From an uncultured Burkholderiales bacterium (GTDB lineage Bacteria; Pseudomonadota; Gammaproteobacteria; Burkholderiales; Usitatibacteraceae), in NCBI GenBank assembly GCA_964617435.1, contig CAZTYC010000001.1, positions 859-38,185 of the forward strand: a stretch of 37,327 bases of DNA. The letters run 5' to 3'. How positions within the stretch are numbered: the stretch's first letter is position 1; each line of letters begins with the position of its first letter. This document shows positions 1 to 31,174 of the stretch, piece by piece. Both the position numbers and the translations under genes were made by a program. Under the pieces are notes generated by a model. The model was not told the origin of the DNA. It ran no database searches and saw nothing but the letters and a program-made list of their open reading frames with translations.

Positions 1-1442
1 CGGCCGACGTCCTTGGCGCGGTCGATGATCTTGAGCTGACCCTCGGCATCGAAGAATCCGGCGTCCCCGGTGTGGAACCAGCCGTCCGCGTCCTTCACCT
101 CGCGGGTCGCCTCGGGATTCTTGTAATACGCGGTGAACAGCCCCGGCGTCTTGAGCAGGATCTCCCCGCTCTCCTGGATCCGGATCTCGACGCCCGGCAG
201 CGGCGCGCCCACGGTGTCCGCCTTGACCTTGCCATTGGCCTGCACGCAGGCGTAGACGGTGGTCTCGGTCTGGCCGTAGAGCTGCTTCATGTTGATGCCG
301 ATGGAGCGGTAGAACACGAACAGATCCGGGCCGATGGCCTCGCCCGCGGTGTACGCCACGCGCACGCGGCTCATGCCCAGGGCGTTGCGCAGCGGGCCGT
401 AGACGCAGAGGTCGCCCGCCGAATACAACAGGCGGTCGAAGGCGCCCACGTTACCCGCGCCCTCAAGCAGCTGCGCGCCGACGCGCCGCGCATGCGCCAT
501 GAAGAAATCGAACATCTTCTTCTTGATCCAGCCGGCGTCCTCCATGCGGATCATCACGGTGGTCAGCAGGCCCTCGAGCACGCGCGGTGGCGCAAAGTAA
601 TACGTGGGGCCGATTTCCTTCATGTCGGTCATCACCGTCTCGGCCGACTCCGGGCACGAAACGCAGAACCCAGTCACCATGGACTGCGAGTAGGAAAACA
701 GGTTCTGGCCGATCCAGGCCATCGGCAGGTAGGCGAGGATCTCCTCGTGGTCGGTCAGCCCCTCGAACTCGCAATATGCGCGGCCGGCGGCAATCATCGC
801 GGCGTGGGTCAGCTCGACGCCTTTCGGGTTGCCGGTGGTACCGGAGGTGAAGAACAGCGCCGCCATGTCGCCGGGCCTGCCCAGCGCAATCTCATGCTCG
901 ACGTACGCCGGGTGCGCGGACAAATGTTCCTTGCCCGCCGCGTTGAGATCCGCAAACGACATCAATCCCGGCTCGTTGTAACGGCGCATGCCGCGCAGGT
1001 CGTCATACACGATGTGCGCCAGATCGGGGCACTGGCCGCGGATCTCGATCAGCTTGTCGGTTTGCTCCTGGTCTTCCACCAGGGCAAAGCGCACCGCGGC
1101 GTTCTTGAGCGCAAAGACCATCTCCTGCGCCACGGCATCCTGGTAGAACGGCACCGGCACGCCGCCGAGGCATTGCGCGGCGGTCATGGCCCAATACAGG
1201 CGCGGGCGGTTTTCGCCGATGATGGCCAACGCATCGCCGCGCTTGAAACCCAGCGACGCGAGGCCGGCGGCGAGCTGCAGGACTTCCGCATGCACCTGCC
1301 GCCACGTCCACGTCTGCCAGATGCCCAGGTCCTTTTCGCGCATCGCCGGGCGCGCGCCACGCACGTCGGCATGGTGGGCGAGCAACCGGGGAAACGTCAG
1401 CGCATCGCTGCGGCCCTCCCCTTGCGTTGCGGCGTCCTCCAT
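1..1442 (-). CDS. AMP-dependent acyl-CoA synthetase/ligase (long-chain-fatty-acid--CoA ligase-like); the 3' end runs off the window
   Basis: The reverse-strand frame is open from ATG (1442-1440) to position 1. The translation MEDAATQGEG... contains FFTSGTTGNPKGV (AMP-binding signature) and DGWFHTGDAGFFDAEGQLKIIDRAKD at the window edge. The listed + ORF 72..1517 is its Arg/Ala-rich antisense shadow. Confidence 0.88.
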   Translation of the reverse strand, partial: MEDAATQGEGRSDALTFPRLLAHHADVRGARPAMREKDLGIWQTWTWRQVHAEVLQLAAGLASLGFKRGDALAIIGENRPRLYWAMTAAQCLGGVPVPFYQDAVAQEMVFALKNAAVRFALVEDQEQTDKLIEIRGQCPDLAHIVYDDLRGMRRYNEPGLMSFADLNAAGKEHLSAHPAYVEHEIALGRPGDMAALFFTSGTTGNPKGVELTHAAMIAAGRAYCEFEGLTDHEEILAYLPMAWIGQNLFSYSQSMVTGFCVSCPESAETVMTDMKEIGPTYYFAPPRVLEGLLTTVMIRMEDAGWIKKKMFDFFMAHARRVGAQLLEGAGNVGAFDRLLYSAGDLCVYGPLRNALGMSRVRVAYTAGEAIGPDLFVFYRSIGINMKQLYGQTETTVYACVQANGKVKADTVGAPLPGVEIRIQESGEILLKTPGLFTAYYKNPEATREVKDADGWFHTGDAGFFDAEGQLKIIDRAKDVG

Positions 1443-1528
1443 CCTTGCGTCTCCCGGCGGGTGTCGTGGCTTACGGCTGACTTGAATCCGCAGTCTAAAC
1501 GCGCTTCGGCGCTATAGTTGTCGCCGCA

Positions 1529-3815: not shown

Positions 3816-4038
3816 TCGCAGCTCCCTATTGCGGATTTGGAGGATGAAAGAATGCCATGCCGTGCCGCCATGTGCGATCGGAACGATGCTGCTGATCCTG
3901 GCCTCCAATTTTCACATGGTGCTTGAAGGCGTGTCCGTGCCCATTCGTCCCGGGCCAACTGCGGATGCGCCATTCGCCCTATGATTGCTCCCTGCCCCAA
4001 GGCAAAATGTCTACACAACGACTTGCACGCAAACGCCC

Positions 4039-4647
4039 ATGACCACTCCCCGCCCCATCGATTTCTATTTCGATTTTTCCTCCCCCTACGGCTACCTGGC
4101 GTCCACGCGCATCAACGCGATTGCCGCCAACCACGGCCGGCGCGTGAACTGGCGGCCCATCCTGCTCGGCCCGATGTTCAAGGCCGTCGGCACGGCGCCA
4201 TTGGTGGGACTGCCCTTGAAGGGGCCGTATTCGATCCACGATTTCATCCGGTCCGCGCGCTATTACCGCGTGCCCTACAAGCAGCCCGACCCGTTTCCCA
4301 TCGGTACGCAGAATGCGGCGCGCGCTTTCTATTGGATCCAGGATCGCGACCCCCTGCGCGCCTGCCAGTTCGCGCAGGCCTGCTATGCGGAGTACTTCGG
4401 CCGCGGCATCGACATTTCCTCGGCCGAGAAAGTTGCCGACCTGGCCGCATCGTTGGGCGAAGATCGCGCGGCCACCCTCGCCGCCATGCAGGACCCGGCA
4501 ATCAAGGAGCGCATGAAAAACGAAAACGATGCGGCGCTGGCCCGCGGCGTGTTCGGCTCACCTTTCATCTTCGTGGACGACGAGCCGTTCTGGGGAAACG
4601 ACCGCCTCGACCAGGTGGATGCCTGGCTCGCCACAGGCGGTTTCTGA
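4039..4647 (+). CDS. 2-hydroxychromene-2-carboxylate isomerase-like DsbA/thioredoxin-fold protein
   Basis: Starting at ATG 4039, the translation is MTTPRPIDFYFDFSSPYGYLAS...GVFGSPFIFVDDEPFWGNDRLDQV, the characteristic HCCA isomerase/DsbA-like pattern. Confidence 0.85.
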   Translation: MTTPRPIDFYFDFSSPYGYLASTRINAIAANHGRRVNWRPILLGPMFKAVGTAPLVGLPLKGPYSIHDFIRSARYYRVPYKQPDPFPIGTQNAARAFYWIQDRDPLRACQFAQACYAEYFGRGIDISSAEKVADLAASLGEDRAATLAAMQDPAIKERMKNENDAALARGVFGSPFIFVDDEPFWGNDRLDQVDAWLATGGF

Positions 4648-4690
4648 GCGCCGCGAAAGCGGTTTGGCGAAGCCGAGTTCTCTCAGCGAA

Positions 4691-5302
4691 TCAGCGCGCG
4701 TCCGCTGCCAGGAGCGCCGCCCAGTCCTCGCGCCGGATGCGTGCGACCGGCACGGCATTCCCGGCCTTTGGCAGGAACACGATCATCTCCAGCAGTTCAA
4801 GATGCATCCAGTCGGCGCGGTCCTTGCCGCCGTGCACATGCGACACCAGGATGGCATTGGTTCCGGGCGCGGGCGTTTCCGACAGCAGCGCGCGGCGCGC
4901 GGCGCCGGGGGGGAGCGCACCCGTCTCGGAACCGGCGTTCAGGCCCTTGGCGATCTCGGCGTTTCCAAAGCCCAGGCGCCTTGCGGTTTCCCGGTTTCGG
5001 CAGGGCTCGGAACTCAGAATCCGGCCTACCGGGACTTTCAAGGCACGCAACGCCGCCGCCACCTCAGCCGTGCTGCTGATGCCCACGGGCGTCAAAGCCG
5101 GCTTGGAACAATCTTCGATCTCCTCCGGCGGATACTGCGCGGCATGCCGGATATAGAGGTTGTACCCGCCCTTGCCGAGCGCCTGCACAAGCGCGGCGCC
5201 CTCCAGCCGGTGCGCTGCGTCCACGACGGGCAGCACGGGCGGCGTCCCGGGTGCCTGCGCGAGCACGCCAACTGACCAGAGCAACACCAAGGCCATGCGC
5301 AT
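4691..5302 (-). CDS. Secreted histidine-phosphatase-superfamily protein (SixA/phosphoglycerate-mutase-like), paralog 1
   Basis: 203 aa. It has a signal peptide (MRMALVLLWSVGVLAQA), GGYNLYIRHA (RH catalytic motif), SSEPCRNRETAR and VSHVH. Its ATG overlaps the TGA of the upstream ligase gene (TGATG on the minus strand at 5300-5304). Confidence 0.75.
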   Translation of the reverse strand: MRMALVLLWSVGVLAQAPGTPPVLPVVDAAHRLEGAALVQALGKGGYNLYIRHAAQYPPEEIEDCSKPALTPVGISSTAEVAAALRALKVPVGRILSSEPCRNRETARRLGFGNAEIAKGLNAGSETGALPPGAARRALLSETPAPGTNAILVSHVHGGKDRADWMHLELLEMIVFLPKAGNAVPVARIRREDWAALLAADAR

Positions 5303-6195
5303 CAGAATTTCTCCCGCACGCGAAGGAACGACGCAAAGCGCGGCAGCCCGGAATTGGTCAGCCCGCGATAGGTATAGGTGATTTCCGTGCCGATCGCTGG
5401 GGGGTTGGCGCGCTGTTCATCGGTGAAGCCGGTGCCGATGTTGAACTCGCGCCCGTCGGGCATCCGCACCCGCAATGCGCCCATCCGGCCGGCATGTCGA
5501 CCCTTGCCGGGAATGATGCCGACGACCGTGGCCTCGGTGTCTTCCAGCGGCTTCAATTTGTAAAGCGCGTCACTGCGGCCCGTGATGTAGGGCGCATCCG
5601 CACGGTGCAGCATCAGCCCTTCGCCGCCGCCCTTGACGACTTCGTCGAGCTTCTTCTTCAGCGCCTTCCGGTCCGCCACGCGGAATTGTTCCACCGCCCT
5701 GAGTTGCGGCCACGCTGCTGCCTCCGCAATGGCACGGATGCGCGCCGCACGCGCTTCGAACGTGTCCGGCGCGCCGGGCAGTTCGAACACCAGGTATTTC
5801 ACCTCGCGCCATTCGGCGTCGACGGGCTCGCTCTTGCGCACGATGCCGGACAGGCGCTCGAACTGGCCGCGCGCGATCCACAGCTCTCCATCCAGCGCGA
5901 TGTCGGGCAGCCGTTCAAGGAACCATTTCGGCGCGTTCACGACATTGCCGCTGCGGAAACGCAACACCTTGCCATCCCACACGGCGCGCACACCGTCGAA
6001 TTTCTCGCTGACCAGGTAGTCGCGCGGATCGACATGCGCGGGCAACACTTTGGCCAGCAGCAGGTCCGGCGCCGCACGCGAGGGCGTGCAGGCGAGCAAC
6101 ACAAAAAGCCCAAGACCAAGAAGCCAAACCCAAGCACTGGCGCGGCCCGCAGGGCGAAACTGTCCGGAAGCGCCCGTCCCGTCTGGACTTTTCAT
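5302..6195 (-). CDS. ligE: Minimal ATP-dependent DNA ligase with an N-terminal signal peptide (Lig E-type periplasmic/secreted ligase)
   Basis: The ATG at 6195 gives MKSPDG...AWVWLLGLGLFVLLACTPSRAAP (signal peptide, possibly lipobox-like LLAC). It continues with VSEKFDGVRA (KxDG adenylation motif, Lys codon 6001-6003), EGLMLHR, LYKLKP and the C-terminal OB-like part. The product is 297 aa, and the start lies 8 nt after the stop of the giant gene. The listed 991-aa ORF 5302..8277 is real only in this last part. Confidence 0.85.
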   Translation of the reverse strand: MKSPDGTGASGQFRPAGRASAWVWLLGLGLFVLLACTPSRAAPDLLLAKVLPAHVDPRDYLVSEKFDGVRAVWDGKVLRFRSGNVVNAPKWFLERLPDIALDGELWIARGQFERLSGIVRKSEPVDAEWREVKYLVFELPGAPDTFEARAARIRAIAEAAAWPQLRAVEQFRVADRKALKKKLDEVVKGGGEGLMLHRADAPYITGRSDALYKLKPLEDTEATVVGIIPGKGRHAGRMGALRVRMPDGREFNIGTGFTDEQRANPPAIGTEITYTYRGLTNSGLPRFASFLRVREKF

Positions 6196-6203
6196 GCCGC
6201 CCC

Positions 6204-9200
6204 CTAGGGAATCGTCCGCCCTGCGCGCGCCTTCGACGTGCTGACGTCTGCGGCGGAGATGGTCCCGCTGGCATTGATGTCGAGTTTGAAATTCGACGCG
6301 TCCACCGGCGTATTCCCGCTCCTGGCCTTGACGGCCGCGATGTCTGCGGCAGTGACCTTGCCCGTGCCGTTGACATCCCCCGGGAGGAAGCCGACCGCCA
6401 CCGCCGCGTTGACACTGCCGCCGGCATTCGTCAATTGCACCGTCAGCCGTGTGGCCTCCGGCACATTGGCCAGCGTGACCACGGCTTCGCTGCCGTTGGC
6501 CACGACCGAGGCGTTGATCCCCGCATAGGTCATGCCGGCCGCATCCAGCACACTGACCGTCCCCGGATTCCCGCCCAGCGAGCCGGTGAACACGAACACG
6601 ATCTGGTGGCCCGCGCCGATCACGCGCGGCTCTACGGTATAGGCGCCGTTGACATCGACACCAACGGCAAGCGGGAGAATGCCGGCAAAGCCGCCGTGCT
6701 GCTTGCGCGATTCGACGCGGTCGAGCGCGATGGGCGCAAACGGTGTCACGTCCACCGTCGCCGACGCCGCCCCTGTGCCCGCCGAATTCATCGCGGTCAC
6801 GGAGCAGGTATAGGTGACGCCGTTGGACAGGCCGCTCACCAGGATAGGCGAACCGGCGGCACTGGCTGTCTTCATGCCCGGATTGCAGGTGACGGTGTAG
6901 CCGAGGATGGCGCTGCCGCCGTTGCTCGCCGGTGGCGAGAACACGATGCTGGCCGCACCATCGAGTTCGTCGGGAATGCCGATGGTGGGCGCGCCGGGAA
7001 CAGTCACCGCCGCGGGCGTGACATCCAACGCGCTCGAGGCCGGGCCGATTCCCATGTTGGCCGCCGCGGCATTGCGCGCCGTGACAGAACAGGAATAGGT
7101 GACGTTGTTCGCCAACCCGGTCACCGTGATCGGCCCGTTCGCCGCAGTCCCGGTGCGCGTCGTCTGGCCCGATGCCGTGCAAGTGACGGTGTAATCGATG
7201 ATCGCGCTGCCGCCGTTCGAAGCGGGCACCCCGAAGGAGACCTGCGCCTGCGCGTTCCCCGGCGTGGCGGTGCCGATGACGGGCATCCCGGGCGGAACGG
7301 GCGTGATCGTCACATTCTGGGTGGCTTGCGAGGCCGCCGCGTAGTTGGCATTGCCGGCCTGGTTGGCCGCAATGGTGCAGGTGCCGCCGAACACCATCGT
7401 CACCGTGGTGCCGCTCACCGTGCAAACCGGAGAGGTGATGGAGGAATACGTCACCGGATTGCCGGACCCGCCGCCGGAGGCCAATGGATTGATCGGGAAA
7501 GGGCCGCCGGGCACGAAGGATTGCGAAGACGGCGACTGGGAGGCAAAGGTGATCGTCTGTGCGGCGGGGGCGATGGTCAGCGTCAACGGCGCCATGCCGG
7601 TACCGCCGGCATTGGTCGCCGAAATCGTTGCGTTGAACACACCGCCTGCGCCAGCGGTGCCGGAAATCGCGCCGGTCATCGTGTCGAGGACGAGTCCAGT
7701 GGGCAAGCCGGCAGCGCCAAAGGAAGTCGGTGTTCCCGTGGCCAGGATCTGGTAACTGAACGGTGCATTGAAGGTGCCATTCGCCGTCGCGGCGCTGGTA
7801 ATCGACGGCGCACCAGGCAATACGGTGATCGTGACCTGGACCGGATCTCCATCGACATTCGGACTGGTTCGCTTGCCGCGATAGGTAAAGGAGTCGATGC
7901 CGGCAAAGCCCGGGTTGGGCGTGTAGGTGGCGACGGTGCCAGCAAAGGTGCCCAGCATGCCGTTGGTGGGAGGCGTCACCACCTCCACGTCCGTGAAGGC
8001 GGACCACGCCTGGCCGGTCAGGTGGATGTGGCTCGCCACGTCCACCTGCACAGGCGAGTTCTGCGACGTGCTGGGCGCATTCGCTGGCAACTGGTCGCGA
8101 ATGAACACGGCGATCGCGGCCAGTTCCGACTGCGTCAGGTTTTGCACCGGCGGGGAGATGGCCATCAACGGTTGCGCGGTACGCACATGCTGCAGCACTG
8201 TGGCGGTGCTGCCGGCGCCGTTGAGCTGGTTTCCGGAAGGCGAGGCGGCATGGCAGTTTGCGCACACGCTGGTCCACAGGGCGCTGCCGTTGGCCGACGT
8301 GGGCGTGACCATGACGCTGCCGGAGGGGCCGCTGGTCTTGCCGGCCTGGTTGGTTGCCGTCACGCTACAGGTGTAGGGCGTGCCGTTGGAAAGTCCACCG
8401 ACGGTCACCGGAGAAGCGGAATTGTTTCCAGTCACTCCGCCGGGGTTGCAGGTGGCGGTGTAGGTGGCGATGGCACTACCGCCCGCGCTCGAGGGCGGCG
8501 TGAAATTGAGGGTCGCGGCCATGTCGGAACCGCTGGCCACGCCGATTACAGGCGCCCCCGGGGCAATGGCATCAATGGTGACGCTCTGCGTGACCTGGGT
8601 CGCGGCATTGTAGTTGGCGTCCCCAGCCTGATTCGCCGCAATCGTGCATACGCCCGCGCTCAACGTATTAACGTTGTTGCCGGCCATGGTGCACACCGCC
8701 GGCGTGGTGGTGCTGTAGCTGATGGGCAATGCCGAAGTCGCAAAAGCCACGGGCGACAGCGCGAAGGGCGTAGTGCTGAAGTTGCGCGGGCTTGCCTGCG
8801 CGCTGAAGGTAATGGTCTGCCCCGCCTTGGCGATGGTGAACGCGCGCGTGACATCGTTGGCGGCCAGGTAGTCCGCGTTGCCCGCCTGGGCGGCCGTGAT
8901 CGAGCAGACACCGGGGGCGACCGTGGTCAGGTTGGCACCGGACACGGTGCAGACGGCCGGCGTGTTGCTGCTCAGGGTCACCGCCAGGCCCGAGGACGAA
9001 CTCGCCGCGAGGGGAATCGGGGCCTGCGCGTAGCTTTGCGTGCCCGGATTGGCAAAGCTGATCGTTTGGGCGACCTTGGCAACCGTCAGCGTGAACGACT
9101 GCATCACCGTGCCGGTTGCGTTTGTGGCGGTGAAGGTCAGCGGATACGGCGACGCGTTCGCGGTGCCGCTCGCGGGCAAACCGGACAGCACACCGGTCGC

Positions 9201-12200
9201 CGGCACAAAGGTAACGCCGGACGGCAGGGTCCCGCTGACCGACAGCACCGGTGGCAGGTTGCCTGTTGCCGTCACGGTAAACGTGCCGTTGGCCAGCACC
9301 GAGAAACTGGTCGCATTCGCGCTGGTGAAGTTGGGTGCCACCAGGGCGGCGGTCGGGGTCGCAAGCACGGGCGGGCTGGAGTCCGGGCCGGTCAATGCGG
9401 CGGCATTGGTCGCCGTCACGGTGCAACTGTATTGGACCCCGTTGGTCAACCCGCCGACGGTGATGGGCGACGTCGCGCTGGTCCCGGAGCCGCTCGGCGA
9501 ACAGGTCGCCGAGTACTGCGTGATCGGGCTGCCGCCGGTGTTCGACGGCGGCGAGAAGGACAGGCTCGCCTGCATCACGCCCGCCACGCCCATGACTCCC
9601 GTGGGCGCACCGGGCGCGACGGCGCTGATGGTCACGTTCTGCGTCACCTGCAGCGCGGCGTTGTAATTGGCGTTGCCGCCCTGGTCGGCAGCGACGGTGC
9701 ACACCCCCGCGGCAACCGGCGTCACGTTCGTGCCCGCCACGGTGCACACGGACGGTGTGAGCGAACTGTAGGTGACCGTCAGGCCGGACGTGCTGCTCGC
9801 CAACGGGCTGACGGGGAAGCCGGCGCCGAAAGGCTGCGGACCGGATTGCGCGCCGAAAGTGATCGACTGCGCGGCCGGCGAGATGGTCACCTGCACGAGC
9901 TGCATGCCGGTGCCCCCCGGGTTGGTGGCCGACACGGTGACGTTGAAGACGCCCGCTTGCCCGGGTGTTCCGCTGATGAGGCCACTTGCGGTGTCGATGG
10001 TTACCCCCGCGCCGAGCGGGCTCGCGCCGTAACTCACCGGGGATTGCGTGGCCGAGATCTGGTAACTGAACGGCTGGCCAAAGACGCCATTGGCGGCCCC
10101 TGGACTGGTAATCGCAGGAGCCGGCGGCGTGGCCACATTGACCGTTACCGTGAAGGCATCGCCCAGCAACAACGGCGAAGAGCGGCGCCCGCGGTAGGTG
10201 AAGCTGTCCATTCCCGCAAAGCCCGGATTGGGCGTGTATGTGATGACCGTTCCGTTGAATGCCGACAAGGTACCGTTGGCCGGCTGGCTGACCACCTGCG
10301 CGGCATCAAACGCGACGCCGCCCAGATACAAGTGTTTCGGCAGGCCGACGTCGATGTCCACCGGCGTCACATATGCGGTGTTGGCGGTGATGGGCGACAG
10401 TTGATCGCGGATGTACTTCGCGATCTCGGAGAGTTCATTTGCGGTAAGCGCCTGGACCGCGCCATCGGCGAGCATCTCCGGCTGCACGGAGCGCACATAG
10501 GCAATGATGTTGCCGGTCGCGCCGGCGGCGTTGAGGCGGCCTGCATTTGGCGTGGCACCATGGCAACCGCTGCAGACCGCATTCCAAAGCACAGTCCCGC
10601 TGCGCAGGGTCGGCGTGGCCATCAGCGCGTTGGACTCCGCCCCCACCCCCTTGGAATTTTGCGCCGCCACCGTGCACGTGTAAGCGGTGTTGTTGGTTAG
10701 CCCTCCGACCACCACGGGTTGCGACGCGCCATTGGCGGTGACGCCGCCGGGATTGCAAGTCCCCCGGTAGCCCGTGACGGCGGCGCCGCCATCGCTGGCG
10801 GGCGGATCGAAGTACAGCCGGATCGTAGAGTCATTGGCCAGTGTGTCATTGAGAGTGGGCGCGCCGGGCGGCACCGCATTAATCGAAATGTTGGCGTTGA
10901 CGGAACTCGCCGCAAAGTAATTTTGGTCTCCCGGCTGCGCCGCGGTCACCGTGCAGATCCCGGCAGAAAGGATCGTGATATTGGTGCCCGCCGCCATGCA
11001 AACGCCGGGGGTGGCCGAGGTGTAGTCGATGGGCAGGCCAGACGTCGCACTGGCCAGCGGGCTGATCGCGAATGAACCGCCCTGGACGAATGGTTGCGCC
11101 GCTTGCGCAGGAAAGGCGATCGATTGCGCCGCCTTGCCGATGACCACGTTTTGCGTCACATCGGCGGCCGCAAGGTAAAGCGCGTTGCCGTCCTGCGACG
11201 CTTCGATGGTGCAGGTGCCCGCGCCGATGATCGTAACCGTCGTGCCGGCCACGCTGCAGGTCGAGGGCGTCAGCGATGCGTAGCCGACCGCGAGTCCGGA
11301 AGATGCCGACGCCGTCGGGCTGATCGCAAAGCTGCCGCCCGGGCTGTAGGTGCGGCTTGCCTGGGCCCCGAACGTGATCGATTGATTTCCCTTGTTGATC
11401 GAGAAACTGCGCGCCACCTGGGAAGCCGGGTTGTAGCTTGCGGTATAGGACAGGGACGCATTCGCTGAATTGGCGTTGATGGTGCAGGTGCCGACGCCAA
11501 CGGTCGTCAAGAGCGTGCCGGACACGGTGCAAACGGGCGACGTCGCGCTGGTGAACACGATGTTCGACGCAGCCAGGGTGCTATTGGGCGTGGCGATGGT
11601 CGCCGCGAGGTTGTAGGTCGGCGAGGCCGTGTACTGCTGGTCCGCAACGGCCGGGAACGTGATGGTGGGGCTGCCCTTTGCGACGCTGAACGACAGCGTC
11701 TGCGTGGGGCACGGCGGCAACGTACCGCACTGCGAATTGTCCGCCTTCAACGTCAATGAGTAGGAACCCACGGATCCGGCCGCCGGAACTCCCCCCAACC
11801 AGGCGAGGCCGGGGGGAATCCTGGCGTTGGTGGCGTTGGTCTGGAACGTCATCCCGGACGGCAGCGACGATGCGTTGGTCAGCACCGCATTGGGACGCGC
11901 CGTGGTGACCACGACGAAGGTCTTCGAGGCTCCCACGTTGAAGGCATACGACGCGGGCGGCAACGTCGCCGCACTTCTGAAGGTCGGTCCAATCGGCGTG
12001 GATATTGGCGTCACCGACGCGGGCGACGAAGGCGGGCTGACCCCGAAACTGTTGCTCGCCGTCACCGTGCACGAATACGCCACGCTGTTGACCAGATTGA
12101 GCACGACAATCGGCGAGTAAACCGTGGTTGAACTTCCCGTCCGCGTTGTTTGGCCGGCTGCCGTGCAGGTTGCCGTGTATGTCACGCCCGGACCATTGCC

Positions 12201-13649
12201 ATTTGCGCCGATCGGGATGGTGGCCCGGGTGTCCCCAGCGACAATGGCCGAGGTAATCAGCGGCTGAAGCGGTGTTTCGGTAAGCGAAATGTCGCCATTG
12301 ACATCCGCCGCAGGATTGAAATTCGCATTGCCGTTCTGCGACGCCTCGATGGTGCAGAGCCCGTTGTCGAGCATGGTGACCGTGTTGCTGGTCGTCCCCG
12401 GCGTGGTGCACACGGTGGGCGTCAACGAGGTGTAGGTCACCGCGAGACCGGACGACGCCGCCACGCCCGTCACGGAGAATGTGCCATTGAGCACGAAGGC
12501 CTTGTCGGACTGCGCCGGGAACGTAATGGACTGGTTGCCCTTGTTGATCGTGATCGAGCGGTTGACTGAAACCGCCGGGTTCCAGTCGCTGTTGCCGGGT
12601 TGCGCCGCGGTGATCGAGCAGTTGCCCACCGACACCATGTTCACCAGGGTGCCGGAGGATGGCTTGGTGCAAACGCCCGTCGAATTGGACGAATACACGA
12701 TGGCCAGTCCGGAGGAGGCGCTGGCCGCCGGACTCAGGCTGAAGGTTCCGCCATTCGAGAAATAGGGCATCACGACTTGCGAACCGAACGTGATGGTCTG
12801 GTTGCCCTTGTTGATCGTGATGCTGCGCGTGACGTCCGGCGCCGCGTTGTAGGTCGAGTTTCCGTTCTGGTTGGCGCGCAACGTGCAAGTGCCGGCGCCC
12901 TGCATGGTCACCGTGGTCCCGCTCACCGTGCAAACCGGCGTGGTATCGGACGTATAGGTGATGGCCAGCCCCGAGGTCGCGCTGGCCAGAGGGCTGACGG
13001 AGAATGTGGCGCCCGGAGAGTAGGTGCGCGGCGAGGTTTGCGCGCCAAACGTGATGGTCTGGTCCAGCTTCGGCACGGTGATGACGAAGTTGGCCGCGTG
13101 ATTCCATTCGACACCAACGCGTGCCGCCGCATACAAGGTGCGCGTGCCACCCACGGCAACGCTGCCGGGCATGGTGAACTTGAAGGAAAAGGTGGTTGCG
13201 CCGGACGCATCGGTGATCCGGTCGTCGGTTGAGTTGTGGGTCAGGTCGTCGTCCGGCTTTTGCAGGTAGATCGACGATTCGCTCAGGTTGTCTGAACTCG
13301 CCGCAATATTGACCCCGGCTTTCGAACTCGCCGCGCCGTTGGTGATACTGATCGTGTACGACCCTTGGGCCCCTGCAGCCAAATTCGCCGGTCCGGAAAT
13401 GGACACGCCCAACGTTGCATTGGGGCTGTGGCACGAACCGCATCCCGCGCCGCCATCCTTGTTGGTGCGCCCGGTGATGCCGCTGGAGTAGGCGTCTGCG
13501 TTTCCAACGGAAAATGCCGTGAGCAAGGCGGCAAGTGCCGCAAAACACCGGGGCACTCCGCTACCGTTGCCGGTTGAAGGCCGGTGATGCGATTCAACAG
13601 CCGCTTCCAACGATGATCCCTTCTGGCGCTTATTGTGGTCTAACGGCAT
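6204..13649 (-). CDS. Giant (2481 aa) secreted multi-domain protein: N-terminal CXXCH module, many two-Cys Ig-like repeats, FN3 domains, two embedded class-I cytochrome-c-like domains, cadherin-like and He_PIG-like Ig domains, and a C-terminal dockerin-like repeat pair
   Basis: The frame is uninterrupted and G/T/S/A/N-rich, typical of adhesins. It has a signal peptide (VPRCFAALAALLTAFSVGNADA) and CGSCH at aa 70-74. Repeats of the form QTITFGAQ...SGL..Y.S.TP.VCTV.G...G.C.I.A.Q.GN..Y recur. FN3-like modules follow the pattern PGAP....F.PP...GGS.I..Y...C. The cytochrome-like segments are LWNAVCSGCHG...MLADGAVQALTANELSEIAKYIRDQ and LWTSVCANCHA...MAISPPVQNLTQSELAAIAVFIRDQ. The C-terminus reads GDVNGTGKVTAADIAAVK...LDINASGTISAADVS. 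A strong SD (GGGGGAGA) precedes the ATG. Confidence 0.9.
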   Translation of the reverse strand: MPLDHNKRQKGSSLEAAVESHHRPSTGNGSGVPRCFAALAALLTAFSVGNADAYSSGITGRTNKDGGAGCGSCHSPNATLGVSISGPANLAAGAQGSYTISITNGAASSKAGVNIAASSDNLSESSIYLQKPDDDLTHNSTDDRITDASGATTFSFKFTMPGSVAVGGTRTLYAAARVGVEWNHAANFVITVPKLDQTITFGAQTSPRTYSPGATFSVSPLASATSGLAITYTSDTTPVCTVSGTTVTMQGAGTCTLRANQNGNSTYNAAPDVTRSITINKGNQTITFGSQVVMPYFSNGGTFSLSPAASASSGLAIVYSSNSTGVCTKPSSGTLVNMVSVGNCSITAAQPGNSDWNPAVSVNRSITINKGNQSITFPAQSDKAFVLNGTFSVTGVAASSGLAVTYTSLTPTVCTTPGTTSNTVTMLDNGLCTIEASQNGNANFNPAADVNGDISLTETPLQPLITSAIVAGDTRATIPIGANGNGPGVTYTATCTAAGQTTRTGSSTTVYSPIVVLNLVNSVAYSCTVTASNSFGVSPPSSPASVTPISTPIGPTFRSAATLPPASYAFNVGASKTFVVVTTARPNAVLTNASSLPSGMTFQTNATNARIPPGLAWLGGVPAAGSVGSYSLTLKADNSQCGTLPPCPTQTLSFSVAKGSPTITFPAVADQQYTASPTYNLAATIATPNSTLAASNIVFTSATSPVCTVSGTLLTTVGVGTCTINANSANASLSYTASYNPASQVARSFSINKGNQSITFGAQASRTYSPGGSFAISPTASASSGLAVGYASLTPSTCSVAGTTVTIIGAGTCTIEASQDGNALYLAAADVTQNVVIGKAAQSIAFPAQAAQPFVQGGSFAISPLASATSGLPIDYTSATPGVCMAAGTNITILSAGICTVTAAQPGDQNYFAASSVNANISINAVPPGAPTLNDTLANDSTIRLYFDPPASDGGAAVTGYRGTCNPGGVTANGASQPVVVGGLTNNTAYTCTVAAQNSKGVGAESNALMATPTLRSGTVLWNAVCSGCHGATPNAGRLNAAGATGNIIAYVRSVQPEMLADGAVQALTANELSEIAKYIRDQLSPITANTAYVTPVDIDVGLPKHLYLGGVAFDAAQVVSQPANGTLSAFNGTVITYTPNPGFAGMDSFTYRGRRSSPLLLGDAFTVTVNVATPPAPAITSPGAANGVFGQPFSYQISATQSPVSYGASPLGAGVTIDTASGLISGTPGQAGVFNVTVSATNPGGTGMQLVQVTISPAAQSITFGAQSGPQPFGAGFPVSPLASSTSGLTVTYSSLTPSVCTVAGTNVTPVAAGVCTVAADQGGNANYNAALQVTQNVTISAVAPGAPTGVMGVAGVMQASLSFSPPSNTGGSPITQYSATCSPSGSGTSATSPITVGGLTNGVQYSCTVTATNAAALTGPDSSPPVLATPTAALVAPNFTSANATSFSVLANGTFTVTATGNLPPVLSVSGTLPSGVTFVPATGVLSGLPASGTANASPYPLTFTATNATGTVMQSFTLTVAKVAQTISFANPGTQSYAQAPIPLAASSSSGLAVTLSSNTPAVCTVSGANLTTVAPGVCSITAAQAGNADYLAANDVTRAFTIAKAGQTITFSAQASPRNFSTTPFALSPVAFATSALPISYSTTTPAVCTMAGNNVNTLSAGVCTIAANQAGDANYNAATQVTQSVTIDAIAPGAPVIGVASGSDMAATLNFTPPSSAGGSAIATYTATCNPGGVTGNNSASPVTVGGLSNGTPYTCSVTATNQAGKTSGPSGSVMVTPTSANGSALWTSVCANCHAASPSGNQLNGAGSTATVLQHVRTAQPLMAISPPVQNLTQSELAAIAVFIRDQLPANAPSTSQNSPVQVDVASHIHLTGQAWSAFTDVEVVTPPTNGMLGTFAGTVATYTPNPGFAGIDSFTYRGKRTSPNVDGDPVQVTITVLPGAPSITSAATANGTFNAPFSYQILATGTPTSFGAAGLPTGLVLDTMTGAISGTAGAGGVFNATISATNAGGTGMAPLTLTIAPAAQTITFASQSPSSQSFVPGGPFPINPLASGGGSGNPVTYSSITSPVCTVSGTTVTMVFGGTCTIAANQAGNANYAAASQATQNVTITPVPPGMPVIGTATPGNAQAQVSFGVPASNGGSAIIDYTVTCTASGQTTRTGTAANGPITVTGLANNVTYSCSVTARNAAAANMGIGPASSALDVTPAAVTVPGAPTIGIPDELDGAASIVFSPPASNGGSAILGYTVTCNPGMKTASAAGSPILVSGLSNGVTYTCSVTAMNSAGTGAASATVDVTPFAPIALDRVESRKQHGGFAGILPLAVGVDVNGAYTVEPRVIGAGHQIVFVFTGSLGGNPGTVSVLDAAGMTYAGINASVVANGSEAVVTLANVPEATRLTVQLTNAGGSVNAAVAVGFLPGDVNGTGKVTAADIAAVKARSGNTPVDASNFKLDINASGTISAADVSTSKARAGRTIP
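6207..6380 (-). other. C-terminal dockerin-like duplicated Ca-binding segment of the giant protein
   Basis: GDVNGTGKVTAADIAAVKARSG...KLDINASGTISAADVSTSKA contains two D.N..G.....D loop-helix repeats, as in type I dockerins. An Ig/cohesin-like module (SRKQHGGFAGILPL...) precedes it. Confidence 0.6.
7010..9074 (-). repeat. Super-repeat copy B of the giant gene (approx. aa 1526-2210)
   Basis: It starts at AKVAQTISFANPG (about 9041-9080) and has the same module order as copy A. Boundaries are approximate. Confidence 0.7.
8250..8264 (-). other. CXXCH motif 3 (CANCH, aa 1796-1800) inside the second cytochrome-c-like domain
   Basis: Reverse complement TGC GCA AAC TGC CAT. It lies exactly 770 codons downstream of motif 2, in the same domain context. 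Confidence 0.65.
9340..11384 (-). repeat. Super-repeat copy A of the giant gene (approx. aa 756-1436): Ig-Ig-FN3-cytochrome c-cadherin-like-He_PIG-Ig-FN3
   Basis: The domain order is colinear with copy B, and the two CXXCH motifs are 2310 nt apart. The copies are diverged at the DNA level (protein-level repeat). Boundaries are approximate. Confidence 0.7.
10560..10574 (-). other. CXXCH motif 2 (CSGCH, aa 1026-1030) inside a class-I cytochrome-c-like domain
   Basis: Reverse complement TGC AGC GGT TGC CAT. A Met-containing segment and an amphipathic LSxxELxxIAxYI helix follow downstream, as in monohaem class I cytochromes c. Confidence 0.65.
13428..13442 (-). other. CXXCH haem-attachment motif 1 (CGSCH, aa 70-74) of the giant protein
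   Basis: The plus strand reads gtggcacgaaccgca, whose reverse complement TGC GGT TCG TGC CAC lies about 18 residues after the predicted signal-peptide cleavage site. Confidence 0.6.
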
Positions 13650-13951: not shown

Positions 13952-14662
13952 CTAGTTTCGGGATTGCGCCGGCGCGCCGTTGCTCAGCGCGCCCCATTCA
14001 CCCGACCGGATCCGCGCCACCGGCACCGGTGGCCCATCCGCCTTGGGACGAAACACGATCACCTCACCCATGTCCATGAACAGCCGGTCCGTTCCGCCAT
14101 TGCCGTTCTGCATATGCCCCACCAGCAGCCGGTTTTTGCCCGGCGGCGGGACCGTGGCGATCAACCGGGCGCGGCCCTCGTGCAAGCGGTGATCCTCGCG
14201 CTTGGGATTCCGATGCAAATCTTCATGCGTTTCCACCGGGGCGACGTCGACCAGCCTGGCGGTTTCCCAGACGCGGCACACTTCGGAGGAGATGACCTTG
14301 TCGAAAGGAATCTCCAGCCGCCGCATTTCCTGGCCGATGCGGCGCGCTTCCTCGCGGCCGGACGCGGTCAGGTTACTTTTGTCGCACGTCGGCGTGACCT
14401 CGCCGGTTTCCGTGTGCCGCAGGTAAAGCACATATCCGCCACGCCGCAACTCCTCCAGCAGGGCCTTGCCGGAGAGTGCGGACGCCTCGTCCACTTGCGG
14501 AATGCGCGGCAGGCCCCCGGGAGGCGTGCCCGAAACTTGCGCCAATGCCTGCATGCCGGGTACCAGGAGTAACCAGCCGACGAGCAAGGTTGCAACGCGG
14601 CGATCGCGCGACCTGGCAGCGCAATGTGTTTCCGTCGAATGGCAATTCGCACGCCTGATCAT
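13952..14662 (-). CDS. Secreted histidine-phosphatase-superfamily protein, paralog 2
   Basis: Starting at Met 14662, the hydrophobic signal region is VATLLVGWLLLVPGMQALAQ. GGYVLYLRHT, SSEVCRVWETAR and VGHMQ follow, and the tail (EVIVFRPKADGPPVPVARIRSGEW) is shared with paralog 1 (EMIVFLPKAGNAVPVARIRREDW). The start codon is uncertain; the listed ORF extends to 14791. Confidence 0.7.
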   Translation of the reverse strand: MIRRANCHSTETHCAARSRDRRVATLLVGWLLLVPGMQALAQVSGTPPGGLPRIPQVDEASALSGKALLEELRRGGYVLYLRHTETGEVTPTCDKSNLTASGREEARRIGQEMRRLEIPFDKVISSEVCRVWETARLVDVAPVETHEDLHRNPKREDHRLHEGRARLIATVPPPGKNRLLVGHMQNGNGGTDRLFMDMGEVIVFRPKADGPPVPVARIRSGEWGALSNGAPAQSRN

Positions 14663-14853
14663 CAGCCAATCCCCTGTTTGCGGGTCAATATGACGTTGGC
14701 ATTTTGGCATCTTCCGGCGTAACATGACGTCGGCCCAACAGGTTGAGAGTTTGCCTGAGTACCTTGTTCCAGGCCATTGATTGCAATACAATTTTTTGCG
14801 CCCCAGATTTCGCGCTCGGCGCGCTCGTTGTCTTCCGGCAAAAAGGGAATCCT

Positions 14854-17800
14854 ATGGCCCCGAGTATTGGCGGCATCTTTTGGCTATGCAGGCAGGTGCG
14901 CTGGACCGCCCTGCTCTTCCTCGTTGCCCTGGCCGCGACCTTGTCATCGCATGAAGCGCGGGCGCAGTCGATCGCCGCCGGTGCCAACATCTGGGCCCCA
15001 TTCAATGCAATGACCAACCCCACCGGCCAAGGGTGTGGCGGCTGCCACGGCACTCCGCCGAGCCTGCCGCAAAAGAACGCGGGCAACGCAGTGGCCGTGT
15101 TCAACGCCGCCATTGCGGCGAATGCCGGTAATTTCATGGGCGCGTACTCGGGCATGAGCGGCACGGATCGCCAGAGCGTCGCGCTCTATATCGGCTCTTC
15201 CGGCGGAGTCACCGAATCGGCAAGCCACTCCGTGACCGTCAACTACGGCAGTTCTGGAAATCTGATCACGCCGCTTAACATCGGCGTGAGCTACACCAGT
15301 GCCAGCATGACCGGCCTCAACGGCGGCACCGTGCAGCAGATCGCCACCACGTCAGGCCCGACGCGCGGCACACTGGCATCGAGCACCCTGACCACCGCTG
15401 GCGCGACGTTCAGCTACAACCACACCGCGACGAATTGCACGGCAGATTCGATTACCTACCAAGGGTCCGGGGTTTCCGGATCGCTGACTCAAGCAAAAAC
15501 GGTCACGATCAACATCACCCCCCCCACCCCGCCGACAATTTCGAACTCGTCGGCAAACATCGCCTACAACTCGTCGATGTCCACCAATATTCCGCTGACC
15601 TTGGGCGGCGGCACGGCGACGTCGCTGATCGTCGGTGCGCTGTCCGGGGGGGCGGGTACGTTGAATGCCACCGGCACCACGCTGACCTACACCGCCAGTG
15701 CCAGCACATATGTGGCCTCCCAGACCGTCAGCGTGCAGGCGGTCGGGCCGTGCGCGACCTCCGCCGCGGCCACCATCACCATCAACGTCGCGGCTCCTCC
15801 GGTGCCGGTGATCACCAGCGCCAACATGGCTTCGGGCGTCGGCGGACAGGCATTCAGCTTCAATGTCACGGCGAGCAATGCGCCCACCGGTTTCGCGGCA
15901 TCCGGTTTGCCCGCGGGTCTGAGCATCAACCCGACGACGGGCGCCATCACCGGAACCCCGTCGGTGTCCGGCATGTTCACCGCCATGGTGACGGCCTCCA
16001 ACGGATCGGGCACAAGCACCGCGCAATCGCTGGCCATCAACGTCACGCTGGCCACGCCGGTGATCACCAGCACGCTCTCCGCGAACGCCACCTCGGGCTC
16101 GCCGTTCACCTACAACATCACCGCAAGCAACCTGCCGGCCAGTTTCAACGCCACCGGGTTGCCGACCGGGCTGATGATCAACACGAGCACCGGGGCGATC
16201 ACCGGGACGCCGGTGGTGGCCATGGCGGGCACCGTGGCGATCACATTGTCGGCCACCAACACTGCGGGGACCGGCACGGCGACGCTGATGCTCAACGTTT
16301 CGCTCAACGCGCCCACCATCACCAGCGCCAACACGGCCAGCGGCAATGTCGGCAGCGCATTCACGTTCAATGTGACCGCAACGGACTTCCCCTCTTCATA
16401 CGGCGCCACGGGATTGCCGGCAGGCTTGTCGATCAACACGATGACCGGGGTGATCTCGGGGACACCCACCTCGGCCGGCGTATCGATGGTCAACCTCACG
16501 GCCACCAACGGAGCGGGCACCGGAATGCAGACGCTCGTGATCACCATCACGCTCCTGCCACCGGTAGTGAGCAGCGGCGCGTCGGTGTCGGGAACGGTCA
16601 CGCAACCGGTGAGTTACCAAATCACGGCCTCGAATTCACCCACGTCCTTTGGTGCGTCCGGGCTGCCCGCAGGGCTGTCCGTCAATGCCATGACCGGCCT
16701 GATCAGCGGCTCACCGACGTCCACCGGGACCACGGTGGTGACTGTCTCCGCCACCAACGCCGCCGGCACGGGCACCAAGGCGGTCACTTTCTCAATCTCC
16801 AATTTCCCGGCGCCCACAATGGCGGGCGCCACGATCCAGGTGCCTTTTGGCGGGACCGGCACCGTGGACTTCTCGCTCTTGTCCGGCGGCAGCAACGTGA
16901 CCAGTTATGTGATCACGCAACCGGCCACCCGAGGCACGATCACCGTCAACGGCAACGTTGCAACTTACACGCCGCAGGCCGGATTCTTCGGCATGGATTC
17001 CTTTGGGGTGACCGCCATGGGCCCCGGCGGAACCTCCCAGCAGGGCCTCATCACGGTGATCGTTGGCACGCCGGCCGCGCCGACCGTCGCGGCGCGCAGC
17101 GTGACGGTGCCCTACAACACGCAAACGGTCATCAGCCTGACCGCCGCAGTCACGGGCGTGGCCACCAGCATTGCCATCACCACGCCTCCCGCCAACGGCA
17201 CGGCCACGGTGAGCGGGCTGACGGTCCTTTACAAGCCGAAGGCGGATTACTTCGGTGACGACAGTTTCGCGTACACCGCCACCGGGCCCGGCGGAACCTC
17301 GATGCCGGCCACCGTTTCCATCACCGTCGCCACGCAGGCGCCATCCGCCTCCGCCGTCAGTTTCGCGGTACCGGCCAACACCGCCACCACGATGGACCTC
17401 AAGCCATTCATCACCGGTTCGGCGATCACCGGGGTGCGGGTCACGGTGGAACCCAAGTTCGGCAAGTCTGCGGTCAATGGCACCAAGGTGGTCTACACGC
17501 CCAATGAGGATTACCTGGGTCCGGACAGCCTTTCCTACATCGCGTTTGGCAATGCCGGCACCTCGGCAGCCGCTGTCGTGACGATCACCGTCATGGGCGA
17601 TCGTCCCAATCCGCTCAAGTCCGGCACGGTGGGCAGCATTGTCAGTTCCCAGGCAGACACCGCCCAACGCAATGCCACGACGACGATCACGACACTCCAG
17701 ACCCGAAACGAGGCCCTGCGGCGTGGGGGCGAGGTGGCCGACGCCAGCCCGGCCCCGCGTGCGCCGCGAGCGCAAGGGAGGGTCGAAACCTCGCTTACCG

Positions 17801-21711: not shown

Positions 21712-22443
21712 TCAATAGTTGCGTCGCGGTGCGTTGTACGCGTCCTTGCCGAACGCGAACGGCGTGGTGCGACCCACCAGCGATTCAATCAGCGCAAGCT
21801 CCAGGTCCGTGTGGTTGACGAAGGGCGCGTTGCTGATCGCCTTGTTCCCATCCTTGCCGATATACACCGGCCGGTCGTGCTGTGTGGCGGTGATGGTTTC
21901 CTTGGCTTCGGGCTTGGCATTGGCACTGACCTCGGTGGTGCCATAGCAGGTGCAGAAATAGCTCTGCTCCTCCTCGGCCTCCACGTAAAACCCAGTTCCG
22001 CGGATACCGATGGTGGCGGTCGGCGTCCGCAACCGCATGGGCTGGTTGCGCGAAACGCTGAGCAGGGCACCGGTCAGCATGCGCAGGCCGGACACGATGA
22101 GCGAATCGGCCTTCTTCTCCGCCTCGATCACGACATTGCTGTTGGCACGCAGGATCATGGCCTGGGTGTTGACCACAAAGACCAGCTCGCTGTCCTTGGC
22201 GGTCTTGACCGTGTCCCCGGGGTTGACCCTGGTGCCCAGGGTGGCCGGCTTGTCGTTGACCGTTGCAGTGCCGGAAATGCGGTAGATCGACTGGCCCGCG
22301 GGAAGGCGGCCGGGCTTGCTCCCGAAGATGTTGGCGACCTGCGCAAGTGCGGCGGGTGAAGACGCCCCCAGCAAGCCGGCCCCCAGCATCTGGATGAGAA
22401 TGCGCCGGCGCGGGTCTTCACGGTCTTTGTCGATCAGGTACAT
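21712..22443 (-). CDS. Tat-signal periplasmic FecR-domain protein, tandem paralog 1
   Basis: 243 aa. The twin-arginine signal is DPRRRILIQMLGAGLLGASSPAALA. The FecR-like core is GQSIYRISGTATVNDKPATLGTRVNPGDTVKT...GIRGTGFYVE. A conserved FCTCYG is present, and the SD is GGAG. Confidence 0.85.
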   Translation of the reverse strand: MYLIDKDREDPRRRILIQMLGAGLLGASSPAALAQVANIFGSKPGRLPAGQSIYRISGTATVNDKPATLGTRVNPGDTVKTAKDSELVFVVNTQAMILRANSNVVIEAEKKADSLIVSGLRMLTGALLSVSRNQPMRLRTPTATIGIRGTGFYVEAEEEQSYFCTCYGTTEVSANAKPEAKETITATQHDRPVYIGKDGNKAISNAPFVNHTDLELALIESLVGRTTPFAFGKDAYNAPRRNY

Positions 22444-22485
22444 GAGGTCTCCAGATTTGGGAAATTGAAGGGCGGCGGCCCGGAC

Positions 22486-23223: not shown

Positions 23224-23554
23224 TGTGGGCTCCAAGAGCCGGGGAATACCGGCATCGGGCGTCAGGGGTGAGGTACGAATCGGCCGGTTTCCCGGATGCA
23301 GGCGATCTTAGCATTTCCGTTTCAACAGGCCATCCCTCATCCGCGCCAAGGAATTCCCTGATTCGCGGACGCTTTCGGGGCGGCGAGACCCCGGCCTTCG
23401 CCAAGCCGCCATCCCTTGGTCGTGGGAATGTTCCCTTCACCGGCAATCCCCTGCGTTAAACTCGCCGGAATGCCCGGACGCGGCTGTGCCGGGGCATGCC
23501 GCAATTCCAACAAGATCCGGCAGCACCAACGCCACACGTCATCGGGGAGCACTC

Positions 23555-25819: not shown

Positions 25820-25871
25820 GCGTCCGGGCCGATCCATTTTCACGCGCCTGTCGGCGCGCAGGGGTGTTTGC

Positions 25872-26927: not shown

Positions 26928-26961
26928 CTGAGCGGGCGCCCCGGCCCCAAGGACGAACGTC

Positions 26962-29391: not shown

Positions 29392-29401
29392 GCGACAGGG
29401 A

Positions 29402-31048: not shown

Positions 31049-31174
31049 GTCTGGGACGAGGGAAAACCGGGTGGCGCCATTGTGCGTGACTTCCGGCCCG
31101 CCCGCTTGTGAATCACCTCACCCGCAGGCCGCAATTTTTCAATTGTTCAGCTTGCGCGCGAGATGCCCACGGGC

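Follow-up and report, generated by a model that had tools for sequence, protein, structure and literature searches.

A giant modular protein of a Usitatibacteraceae bacterium with predicted cytochrome c domains in a duplicated Ig/FN3 super-repeat and an X-module-dockerin-like C-terminus

The window analysed here is a stretch of 37,327 nucleotides (65% GC) from an uncultured Burkholderiales bacterium, a soil betaproteobacterium of the Usitatibacteraceae (GenBank assembly GCA_964617435.1, contig CAZTYC010000001.1, positions 859 to 38,185 of the forward strand). Its minus strand carries an open reading frame (ORF) of 2481 amino acids (aa), hereafter the giant, which is a real and conserved gene for a very long modular extracytoplasmic protein. 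Two internal modules are supported, by sequence and by a structural model, as class-I His/Met cytochrome c domains predicted to bind haem. They are embedded in the two copies of a super-repeat of beta-sandwich modules, a third haem motif lies close to the N-terminus, and the C-terminus resembles, weakly but consistently, the X-module-dockerin pairs of cellulosomes. Architecture, duplication, cytochrome and dockerin assignments, the conservation of ligands, family and neighbourhood, and the shared anchor were computed in silico; haem loading, secretion route, tethering and an electron-transfer function are what we only infer from them. Our tentative interpretation is that of a tethered adhesive fibril with exposed haem domains.

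Module architecture and homologues of the giant

The module map was made with hidden Markov models (HMMs) built from the giant's own modules, combined with Pfam scans of the whole and of cut sequences. The immunoglobulin-like modules are abbreviated Ig.

6204..13649, minus strand: giant ORF, 2481 aa, 27 modules, with full-length homologues at 45-69% identity
13491..13649, minus strand: putative long N-terminal signal region (aa 1-53), hydrophobic core CFAALAALLTAFSVGNADA followed by YSSGITG, read from the sequence
13071..13490, minus strand: choice-of-anchor V domain (aa 54-193), with the third haem motif, CGSCH, at aa 70-74
12276..13061, minus strand: Ig1-Ig3 (aa 197-458), Ig-like modules of ~85 aa with a Cys pair, in-protein HMM iE 1e-35 to 1e-42
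12027..12275, minus strand: FN3-1 (aa 459-541), Pfam and in-protein HMM
11685..11996, minus strand: He_PIG-1 (aa 552-655), Pfam and in-protein HMM
11391..11669, minus strand: Ig4 (aa 661-753), in-protein HMM
9378..11384, minus strand: super-repeat copy A (aa 756-1424), Ig5-Ig6-FN3-2-cyt-1-Big_9-1-He_PIG-2-Ig7-FN3-3, BLASTP and in-protein HMM
10368..10622, minus strand: cytochrome c module 1, cyt-1 (aa 1010-1094; C1026, C1029, H1030, M1059), PF13442, profile against PDB, AlphaFold2
10134..10367, minus strand: Big_9/cadherin-like module 1 (aa 1095-1172), always immediately C-terminal to the cytochrome
9069..9341, minus strand: He_PIG-3 (aa 1437-1527), Pfam and in-protein HMM
7035..9068, minus strand: super-repeat copy B (aa 1528-2205), Ig8-Ig9-FN3-4-cyt-2-Big_9-2-He_PIG-4-Ig10-FN3-5, BLASTP and in-protein HMM
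8058..8312, minus strand: cytochrome c module 2, cyt-2 (aa 1780-1864; C1796, C1799, H1800, M1829), Pfam and in-protein HMM
6762..7004, minus strand: FN3-6 (aa 2216-2296), in-protein HMM
6387..6737, minus strand: X-module-like Ig sandwich (aa ~2305-2421), SRKxHG motif, AlphaFold2 model
6207..6383, minus strand: dockerin (aa 2423-2481), two segments of a Ca-loop and a helix each, DVNGTGKVTAAD and DINASGTISAAD

The first-pass annotation, made from the sequence alone, had proposed that the protein is built from a ~770-aa super-repeat with two internal CXXCH motifs exactly 770 codons apart. BLASTP of one half against the other gave a single colinear high-scoring segment pair, aa 685-1418 against 1429-2196, with 48.5% identity over 777 columns (E = 0), and the HMM segmentation likewise revealed a true colinear duplication. 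The duplicated block has eight modules, in an order identical to the one claimed (Ig-Ig-FN3-cytochrome c-Big_9-He_PIG-Ig-FN3, Big_9 being the module described as cadherin-like). CXXCH motifs occur at aa 70 (CGSCH), 1026 (CSGCH) and 1796 (CANCH), three where 0.004 would be expected from composition, and are separated by 956 residues (first to second) and, as had been noted, by 770 (second to third, 1796-1026). Both internal motifs had thus been seen; the N-terminal one had been overlooked.

Pfam recognised fn3 six times, He_PIG four times and Big_9 twice, and no Pfam model reached its cut-off on Ig1-Ig3. Repeated FN3-like stretches match NCBIfam NF045522 (MXAN_2561 family MXYO-CTERM-anchored protein), for which the giant remains below cut-off (66.3 versus 150 bits). 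The giant's 41 Cys residues can all be placed: one in the signal peptide, six in the haem motifs, two in He_PIG-1 and the rest as one pair in every Ig (ten) and every FN3 (six) module. A conserved Cys pair had been claimed for nearly every Ig module, and it is found in all of them; pairs in all 16 Ig and FN3 modules are consistent with an oxidising, extracytoplasmic location. The GC content at third codon positions (GC3) is 0.82, matching other real genes of the window. If extended, the protein would have a length on the order of 100 nm.

Close homologues of the whole protein number ~45, measure 2.2-3.9 thousand residues and have the same set of Pfam domains. Most come from metagenome genomes of Betaproteobacteria (Usitatibacteraceae), the closest genomic matches being Usitatibacteraceae metagenome-assembled genomes. 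Their names are restricted to 'mono/diheme cytochrome c family protein' or 'Ig/FN3 domain-containing protein', none of them functional. They have one to four internal cytochrome copies per protein, with haem motifs spaced by 766-783 residues, and at one locus (L001) four giant paralogues lie in tandem.

The internal cytochrome c modules

The internal segments had been described as class-I cytochrome-c-like, each with a downstream Met and an LS/T..EL..IA.YIRDQ helix, and several lines of evidence sustain this description. PF13442 (Cytochrome_CBB3) matches two stretches of the giant with 53.5 bits (cut-off 27); PF00034, at 19.8 bits, falls below its cut-off of 21.3. Searched as a single sequence against PDB, cyt-1 yielded marginal matches only (E >= 0.1), and a profile of 32 cytochrome modules recovered the fructose dehydrogenase cytochrome subunit at 7e-7, with further matches to actinobacterial QcrC, CcoP, cytochromes c4, c2 and c6 and the p-cresol methylhydroxylase cytochrome. 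The downstream Met residues M1059 and M1829 are likewise 770 residues apart, and the helix L[TS]..EL..IA.[YF]IRDQ is present in both copies. AlphaFold2 modelled residues 1006-1177 with a mean predicted local distance difference test score (pLDDT) of 92.8 and a predicted template modelling score (pTM) of 0.85, as six short helices followed by a beta-sandwich; the six helices span ~65 residues with pLDDT above 90.

The putative ligands are strongly constrained. An alignment of 28 copies shows no variation at either Cys, the His or the distal Met, and the haem-motif triad is kept in 92 homologous internal domains, which share the consensus TP..G..W...C..CH...P....N..G....V...V...Q..M at >=80%. 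In one subfamily (P0005, P0022, P0023, P0028, P0030, P0031, P0033-P0036, P0038 and P0045) the last cytochrome module has CX4CH, for instance CGSGGCH, instead of CXXCH, with both Cys and the His retained. That the Cys...Cys-His triad survives this switch, together with the invariance of the ligands, speaks for selection that acts on haem ligation as such.

Cyt-1 and Big_9-1 are among the best-conserved modules of the giant, 76-78% identical in comparison with six orthologues. The order FN3-cytochrome-Big_9 recurs in eight of nine proteins of other architecture scanned with Pfam, and cytochrome-Big_9 in the ninth (P0142), in the company of FG-GAP, InlB-type repeat, CHRD, lactonase propeller and dockerin modules. 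Since the triad recurs among such varied modules it behaves as a mobile cassette. An exhaustive search with HMMER over 1.84 billion representatives retrieved only 81 clusters for the cytochrome module at E <= 1e-3, and the nine proteins just mentioned were drawn from these. Some distant relatives form tandem arrays (P0122, P0126, P0132, P0135, P0138 and P0141); P0122, of 1399 aa, has 19 CXXCH motifs with a near-exact 71-residue period and is a chain of 19 monohaem class-I-like domains.

The N-terminal region

The putative signal region is followed by a mature N-terminus, GITGRT, that is kept in homologues. The next domain is recognised by NCBIfam NF041895 (choice-of-anchor V; aa 45-176, 82.8 bits, cut-off 42) and found neither a PDB relative by sequence nor a Pfam match. 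Its two Cys, its His and a second His are invariant in 18 aligned homologues, a ligand set that, judged by conservation, would be compatible with a bis-His c-type haem. Among homologues the motif ranges from CX2CH to CX6CH (CX3CH to CX6CH in P0010, P0013, P0022, P0030 and P0032-P0034), and both Cys and the His are always kept. A classical cytochrome c domain replaces the anchor-V domain in some homologues, and in every full-length homologue inspected the mature chain opens with a haem-motif domain of one or the other type. Searches of the literature on choice-of-anchor domains and on Usitatibacteraceae yielded incidental mentions only.

The X-module-dockerin-like C-terminus

A dockerin is made of two segments of ~22 residues, in each of which a Ca-binding loop with D/N at positions 1, 3, 5, 9 and 12 leads into a helix. 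The proposed dockerin-like C-terminus agrees with this: PF00404 (Dockerin_1) matches aa 2423-2470 with 36 bits (cut-off 22.9), a profile of the family retrieves solved dockerins from PDB (2ccl_B at 1.7e-6), and both segments align with Clostridium thermocellum dockerins. Loop positions 1, 3 and 12 follow the canonical pattern, Thr/Ser occupies positions 5 and 9, and positions 1 and 12 are invariant in both segments of a 28-sequence alignment.

The ~120 residues that precede the dockerin have no Pfam match. AlphaFold2 modelled them together with the dockerin (pLDDT 92.8, pTM 0.86) as a nine-strand sandwich of the Ig type, with the two helices of the dockerin after it. A profile of this combined region spans both parts of the CipA X-DocII structure 2b59_B (E 2.3e-5), and Foldseek placed the ScaA X-dockerin 4u3s_B at rank 2 (E 4e-3, template modelling (TM) score 0.30-0.35) and also returned 3kcp_A, amid generic Ig domains. 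The dockerin reported in the first-pass annotation probably belongs to a pair, an X-module-like Ig sandwich plus dockerin. We also considered the pre-dockerin module with its SRKxHG motif as the missing cohesin, which is ruled out by the Ig-type sandwich of the model and by the Ig and X-dockerin matches from Foldseek and the PDB profile search.

A profile search detected the X-dockerin pair at the C-terminus of many unrelated proteins of these bacteria as well. Among them are a beta-helix protein of 809 aa, a protein of 800 aa, an RCC1-propeller protein of 1752 aa and stand-alone proteins of ~258 aa that have an S.NF repeat at the N-terminus (loci L022 5444..8777, L024 4073..8801 and L026 8481..17611), and several of the carriers share a genome with the four tandem giants. 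Occurrence on many unrelated cargo proteins is as expected of a shared anchoring or sorting module, and from its distribution the pair appears to be one. The X module (41%) and the dockerin (51%) are the least conserved parts of the giant in comparison with six orthologues, the rod modules being 57-82% identical; this sequence divergence could reflect co-evolution with a lineage-specific partner, or module swapping.

Gene neighbourhood

13952..14587, minus strand: HP1, putative secreted histidine-phosphatase-superfamily-like protein, directly upstream of the giant, tblastx matches to L003 and L001, start codon uncertain
4691..5302, minus strand: HP2, paralogue of HP1 (39% identical), downstream of the giant
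14851..19674, plus strand: autotransporter of 1607 residues, divergent from HP1, with cytochrome c (CGGCH), four He_PIG, three Big_9, a barrel and a ~300-aa extension
19686..21638, plus strand: lipoprotein of 650 aa, lipobox LLAGC, haem motifs CISCH, CRTCH and CTSSNCH (CX4CH), PKD domain

HP1 was hidden among spurious ORFs in the first ORF list, and the first-pass annotation had overlooked this partner gene as well as the cytochrome-bearing autotransporter and the lipoprotein. Five independent loci, namely the window, L001, L003, L027 and L028, have an HP gene immediately 5' of a giant gene, a recurrence that suggests a functional pair. In L001, L003 and L027, as in the window, the autotransporter is divergent from HP and giant. 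Its passenger starts with the CGGCH cytochrome c domain, which is recognised by the HMM of the giant's cytochromes at E 4e-9; a haem-loaded domain would be unusual as cargo of type V secretion. The protein continues for ~300 residues past a complete Pfam barrel domain and ends in ...YSIVYLIRF, an extension that found no Pfam or PDB sequence match. An orthologue of identical layout is encoded by strain GR16-43 (L019 5214..9989).

Directly downstream, the gene of the three-haem-motif lipoprotein forms an operon with that of the autotransporter. The lipoprotein is highly conserved and has more than 1200 relatives, the best 120 of which are 60-87% identical; the few source-named relatives listed are from Usitatibacter or Betaproteobacteria and are called 'hypothetical' or 'mono/diheme cytochrome c family protein'. 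A sequence search against PDB gave nothing usable. The operon also occurs away from any adjacent giant, in L020 and in the fully sequenced strain GR16-43. It is hence a core module, to which giants are accessory, often but not always beside it, and the idea that the autotransporter is a dedicated anchor of giants is weakened by these loci. Other haem-protein genes adjoin giant genes in several genomes.

Discussion

Attachment of haem to CXXCH requires export by Sec and maturation in the periplasm, and a folded, haem-loaded protein of such size would need a route like type II secretion to leave a Gram-negative cell. We favour, at somewhat short of an even chance, the view that the giant is a secreted, dockerin-tethered adhesive fibril with exposed haem domains that exchange electrons by collision. 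The protein would be exported by Sec, receive covalent haem in the periplasm at three sites (anchor-V and the two class-I His/Met modules) and form disulphides in its Ig and FN3 modules. It would then cross the outer membrane, type II secretion being the obvious candidate for a folded haem protein, and the X-module and dockerin would tether it in a Ca-dependent manner to a partner. Rigid beta-sandwich spacers of eight to nine modules (~30 nm, assuming ~4 nm per folded module) would keep the haem domains apart. Collision partners may be redox substrates outside the cell or else other surface cytochromes, for example the cytochrome c displayed by the autotransporter and the three-haem-motif lipoprotein. 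The giant cannot be a wire, since haems ~30 nm apart are far beyond electron-tunnelling range.

Several observations weigh against this view. The same haem spacing excludes intramolecular transfer, so that a relay would need intermolecular contacts. His/Met monohaem domains are usually high-potential carriers, and electron uptake or the handling of oxidants would therefore fit better than mineral reduction. Foldseek on the model of cytochrome plus Big_9 was dominated by the Ig half, to which all top matches belong, and gave no structural match for the cytochrome fold, which thus rests on the sequence profile and on secondary structure. The Pfam scan of the giant revealed no recognisable catalytic or carbohydrate-binding module, and the NCBIfam scan no carbohydrate-binding module (CBM) either. 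No window ORF scanned matches Pfam cohesin and no other dockerin partner was found in the window, in line with the first-pass annotation, which had recognised no cohesin-like partner there. The existence of the autotransporter-lipoprotein operon without an adjacent giant, finally, means that the link between autotransporter and giant is not obligatory.

A fibril that acts in adhesion or biofilm formation, a rod for attachment or aggregation in which the cytochromes are kept as compact, stable spacer or binding modules with a redox chemistry that is physiologically unused, seems unlikely to us, though it deserves serious consideration. It is suggested by the fact that 23 of the 27 modules are adhesin-type beta-sandwiches, none is catalytic, and relatives join the cassette to FG-GAP, InlB-type and CHRD modules; moreover, a super-repeat that varies in copy number between homologues, giving one to four internal cytochromes, and tandem paralogues are both typical of surface adhesins. 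It does not readily explain why Cys, Cys, His and Met should be invariant in 28 copies and the Cys...Cys-His triad outlast the change to CX4CH, why haem domains are at the distal tip in all homologues inspected and in the autotransporter, or why other cytochrome genes are linked. More drastic is the proposal that the modules are degenerate, non-haem and merely cytochrome-like, or that the gene is mis-called. The many long spurious ORFs that its high GC content brings to the window invite such suspicion, which we find hardly credible given a GC3 of 0.82 as in neighbouring genes, full-length homologues with 45-69% identity in many assemblies, invariant haem-ligand residues and confident AlphaFold2 models for both regions modelled.

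The giant might also serve as redox partner of secreted oxidative enzymes, in the way that the X183 domain of Cbp2D from Cellvibrio japonicus, for which an electron-donor role has been shown (PMC8981238), reduces lytic polysaccharide monooxygenases. X183 domains are monohaem c-type domains of large modular proteins that are exported by Sec and contain FN3 as well; a single protein can have as many as three of them, as does TERTU_2913 of Teredinibacter turnerae (PMC8981238, PMC10916295). Other dockerin proteins of these bacteria carry enzyme-like cargo (beta-helix, lactonase and RCC1 propellers), and a shared scaffold could thus bring cytochromes and enzymes together. We nevertheless judge this role improbable: Pfam scans identified no CBM or carbohydrate-active enzyme domain in the giant and none was seen in the window, no X183 protein is among the 60 listed of the 129 PDB matches of the cytochrome profile, the spacers are contiguous Ig modules instead of flexible linkers, and the TtX183 domains reportedly did not activate their cognate enzyme (PMC10916295).

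The tethered, collision-based fibril can be extended to a larger scheme that we regard as a long shot. Giant, autotransporter cytochrome c and the conserved three-haem-motif outer-membrane lipoprotein would then constitute an undescribed surface electron-exchange apparatus of Usitatibacteraceae, in which X-dockerin-anchored fibrils hold sparse, high-potential haems tens of nm out and collisions between fibrils and cytochromes connect respiration, without the use of multihaem wires, with donors or acceptors outside the cell (Fe, Mn, humics, oxidants).

Comparison with known systems

Cytochrome domains interspersed in an adhesin-like repeat protein had been called unusual, a statement that has to be tempered because monohaem domains in large secreted modular proteins have already been described (PMC8981238, PMC10916295). 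In overall design the giant resembles the X183 proteins, which were proposed as extracellular electron carriers, in having predicted monohaem domains embedded in a large modular secreted protein. X183 proteins carry or associate with CBMs and have flexible linkers, whereas the giant has a contiguous super-repeat of Ig, FN3, He_PIG and Big_9 modules, no CBM and an X-dockerin end. A second likeness is to PgcA of Geobacter sulfurreducens, the 'hemes on a string', whose three monohaem domains form no packed chain (PMC11520253, PMC10570954, PMC5732950) and transfer electrons by tethered diffusion, movement or collision (PMC11520253). Both are extracellular, by prediction in the case of the giant, and have three haem domains without a fixed haem wire. 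PgcA is small, with flexible (PT)x linkers that reach ~18 nm; the giant has 2481 aa, ~8-9 folded modules per spacer and a dockerin, and its sequence contains no (PT)x repeats. By analogy it may work like PgcA or the X183 proteins. Multihaem wires and porin-cytochrome conduits have closely spaced motifs, unlike the giant with its gaps of 956 and 770 residues. Without PT linkers, a CBM or close motifs it is not a member of the PgcA-type, CBM-associated X183 or multihaem-wire families.

The Cyc2-type fused cytochrome-porins of iron oxidisers expose a class-I monohaem cytochrome c at the outer surface of an envelope of the betaproteobacterial type, with the haem domain in or at the barrel. By description, the neighbouring autotransporter is similar in joining a predicted monohaem domain to a barrel of the outer membrane; its haem domain differs in lying ~1000 passenger residues from the barrel, and the giant has no barrel.

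The C-terminus appears comparable to the cellulosomal X-module plus type II dockerin (CipA X-DocII 2b59, ScaA XDoc 4u3s): in both, a very large modular protein ends in a Ca-binding dockerin of two segments, with an Ig-like module immediately before it. The similarity is weak (profile E 2e-5; Foldseek E 4e-3, TM ~0.3), the host of the giant is Gram-negative and non-cellulolytic, no cohesin was identified in the window, and position 5 of the Ca-loop is Thr/Ser where cellulosomal dockerins have Asp/Asn. Dockerin-like modules on diverse secreted proteins of organisms that do not degrade cellulose, with partners mostly unknown, are described by Peer et al. 2009 (cited in PMC9012536). Compared to these non-cellulosomal proteins, the giant differs in that its cargo includes cytochrome c and in that a common X-dockerin module is found at the end of a whole series of proteins encoded by the same genomes.

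In the literature we found no description of a rigid Ig/FN3 super-repeat with one cytochrome per ~770 residues, of an FN3-cytochrome-Big_9 cassette, of a haem domain at the distal tip, of an X-dockerin end on a cytochrome-bearing protein in Proteobacteria, or of an HP gene, a cytochrome displayed by an autotransporter and a three-haem-motif lipoprotein as recurrently linked partners. If the haem modules are loaded and exposed, the giants would extend the short list of extracellular redox proteins with unpacked haems, so far PgcA and X183. The extension would reach common soil and freshwater Betaproteobacteria, with a very different design that combines rigid spacers of ~30 nm with a dockerin-type anchor and a linked cytochrome on an autotransporter, and would assign a function to dockerins of Gram-negative, non-cellulolytic bacteria. 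If the modules are only structural, the giants would be an uncharacterised adhesin family with an odd insert. The FN3-cytochrome c-Big_9 cassette, being compact and well conserved, is easy to express and test.

Other features of the window

Promoter and terminator scans around the giant gene gave results at chance level. Between its stop codon and HP2 lie ~900 bp (5303..6203) with no conserved coding signal by tblastx and no convincing terminator, which might be what remains of a lost gene, or else a long 3' region. Very long Arg/Ala/His-rich ORFs of up to 1421 aa are found at 72..1517, 3981..5156, 5251..6207 and 6435..10700 on the plus strand and at 33951..35288 on the minus strand. They have no family matches, mostly overlap or are antisense to ORFs with coding-type GC3 or family matches, and are spurious, as expected in DNA of this base composition.

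Downstream of the lipoprotein, 21712..31867 comprises a signalling cluster with two FecR-domain proteins, a CHASE2 adenylate/guanylate cyclase, a metallo-beta-lactamase-fold protein, a CHASE2 histidine kinase, a LysM-FecR protein and a response regulator. The part with FecR, the CHASE2 cyclase and the metallo-beta-lactamase-fold protein, as well as later VWA, AAA and DUF4139 genes, is syntenic with L020.

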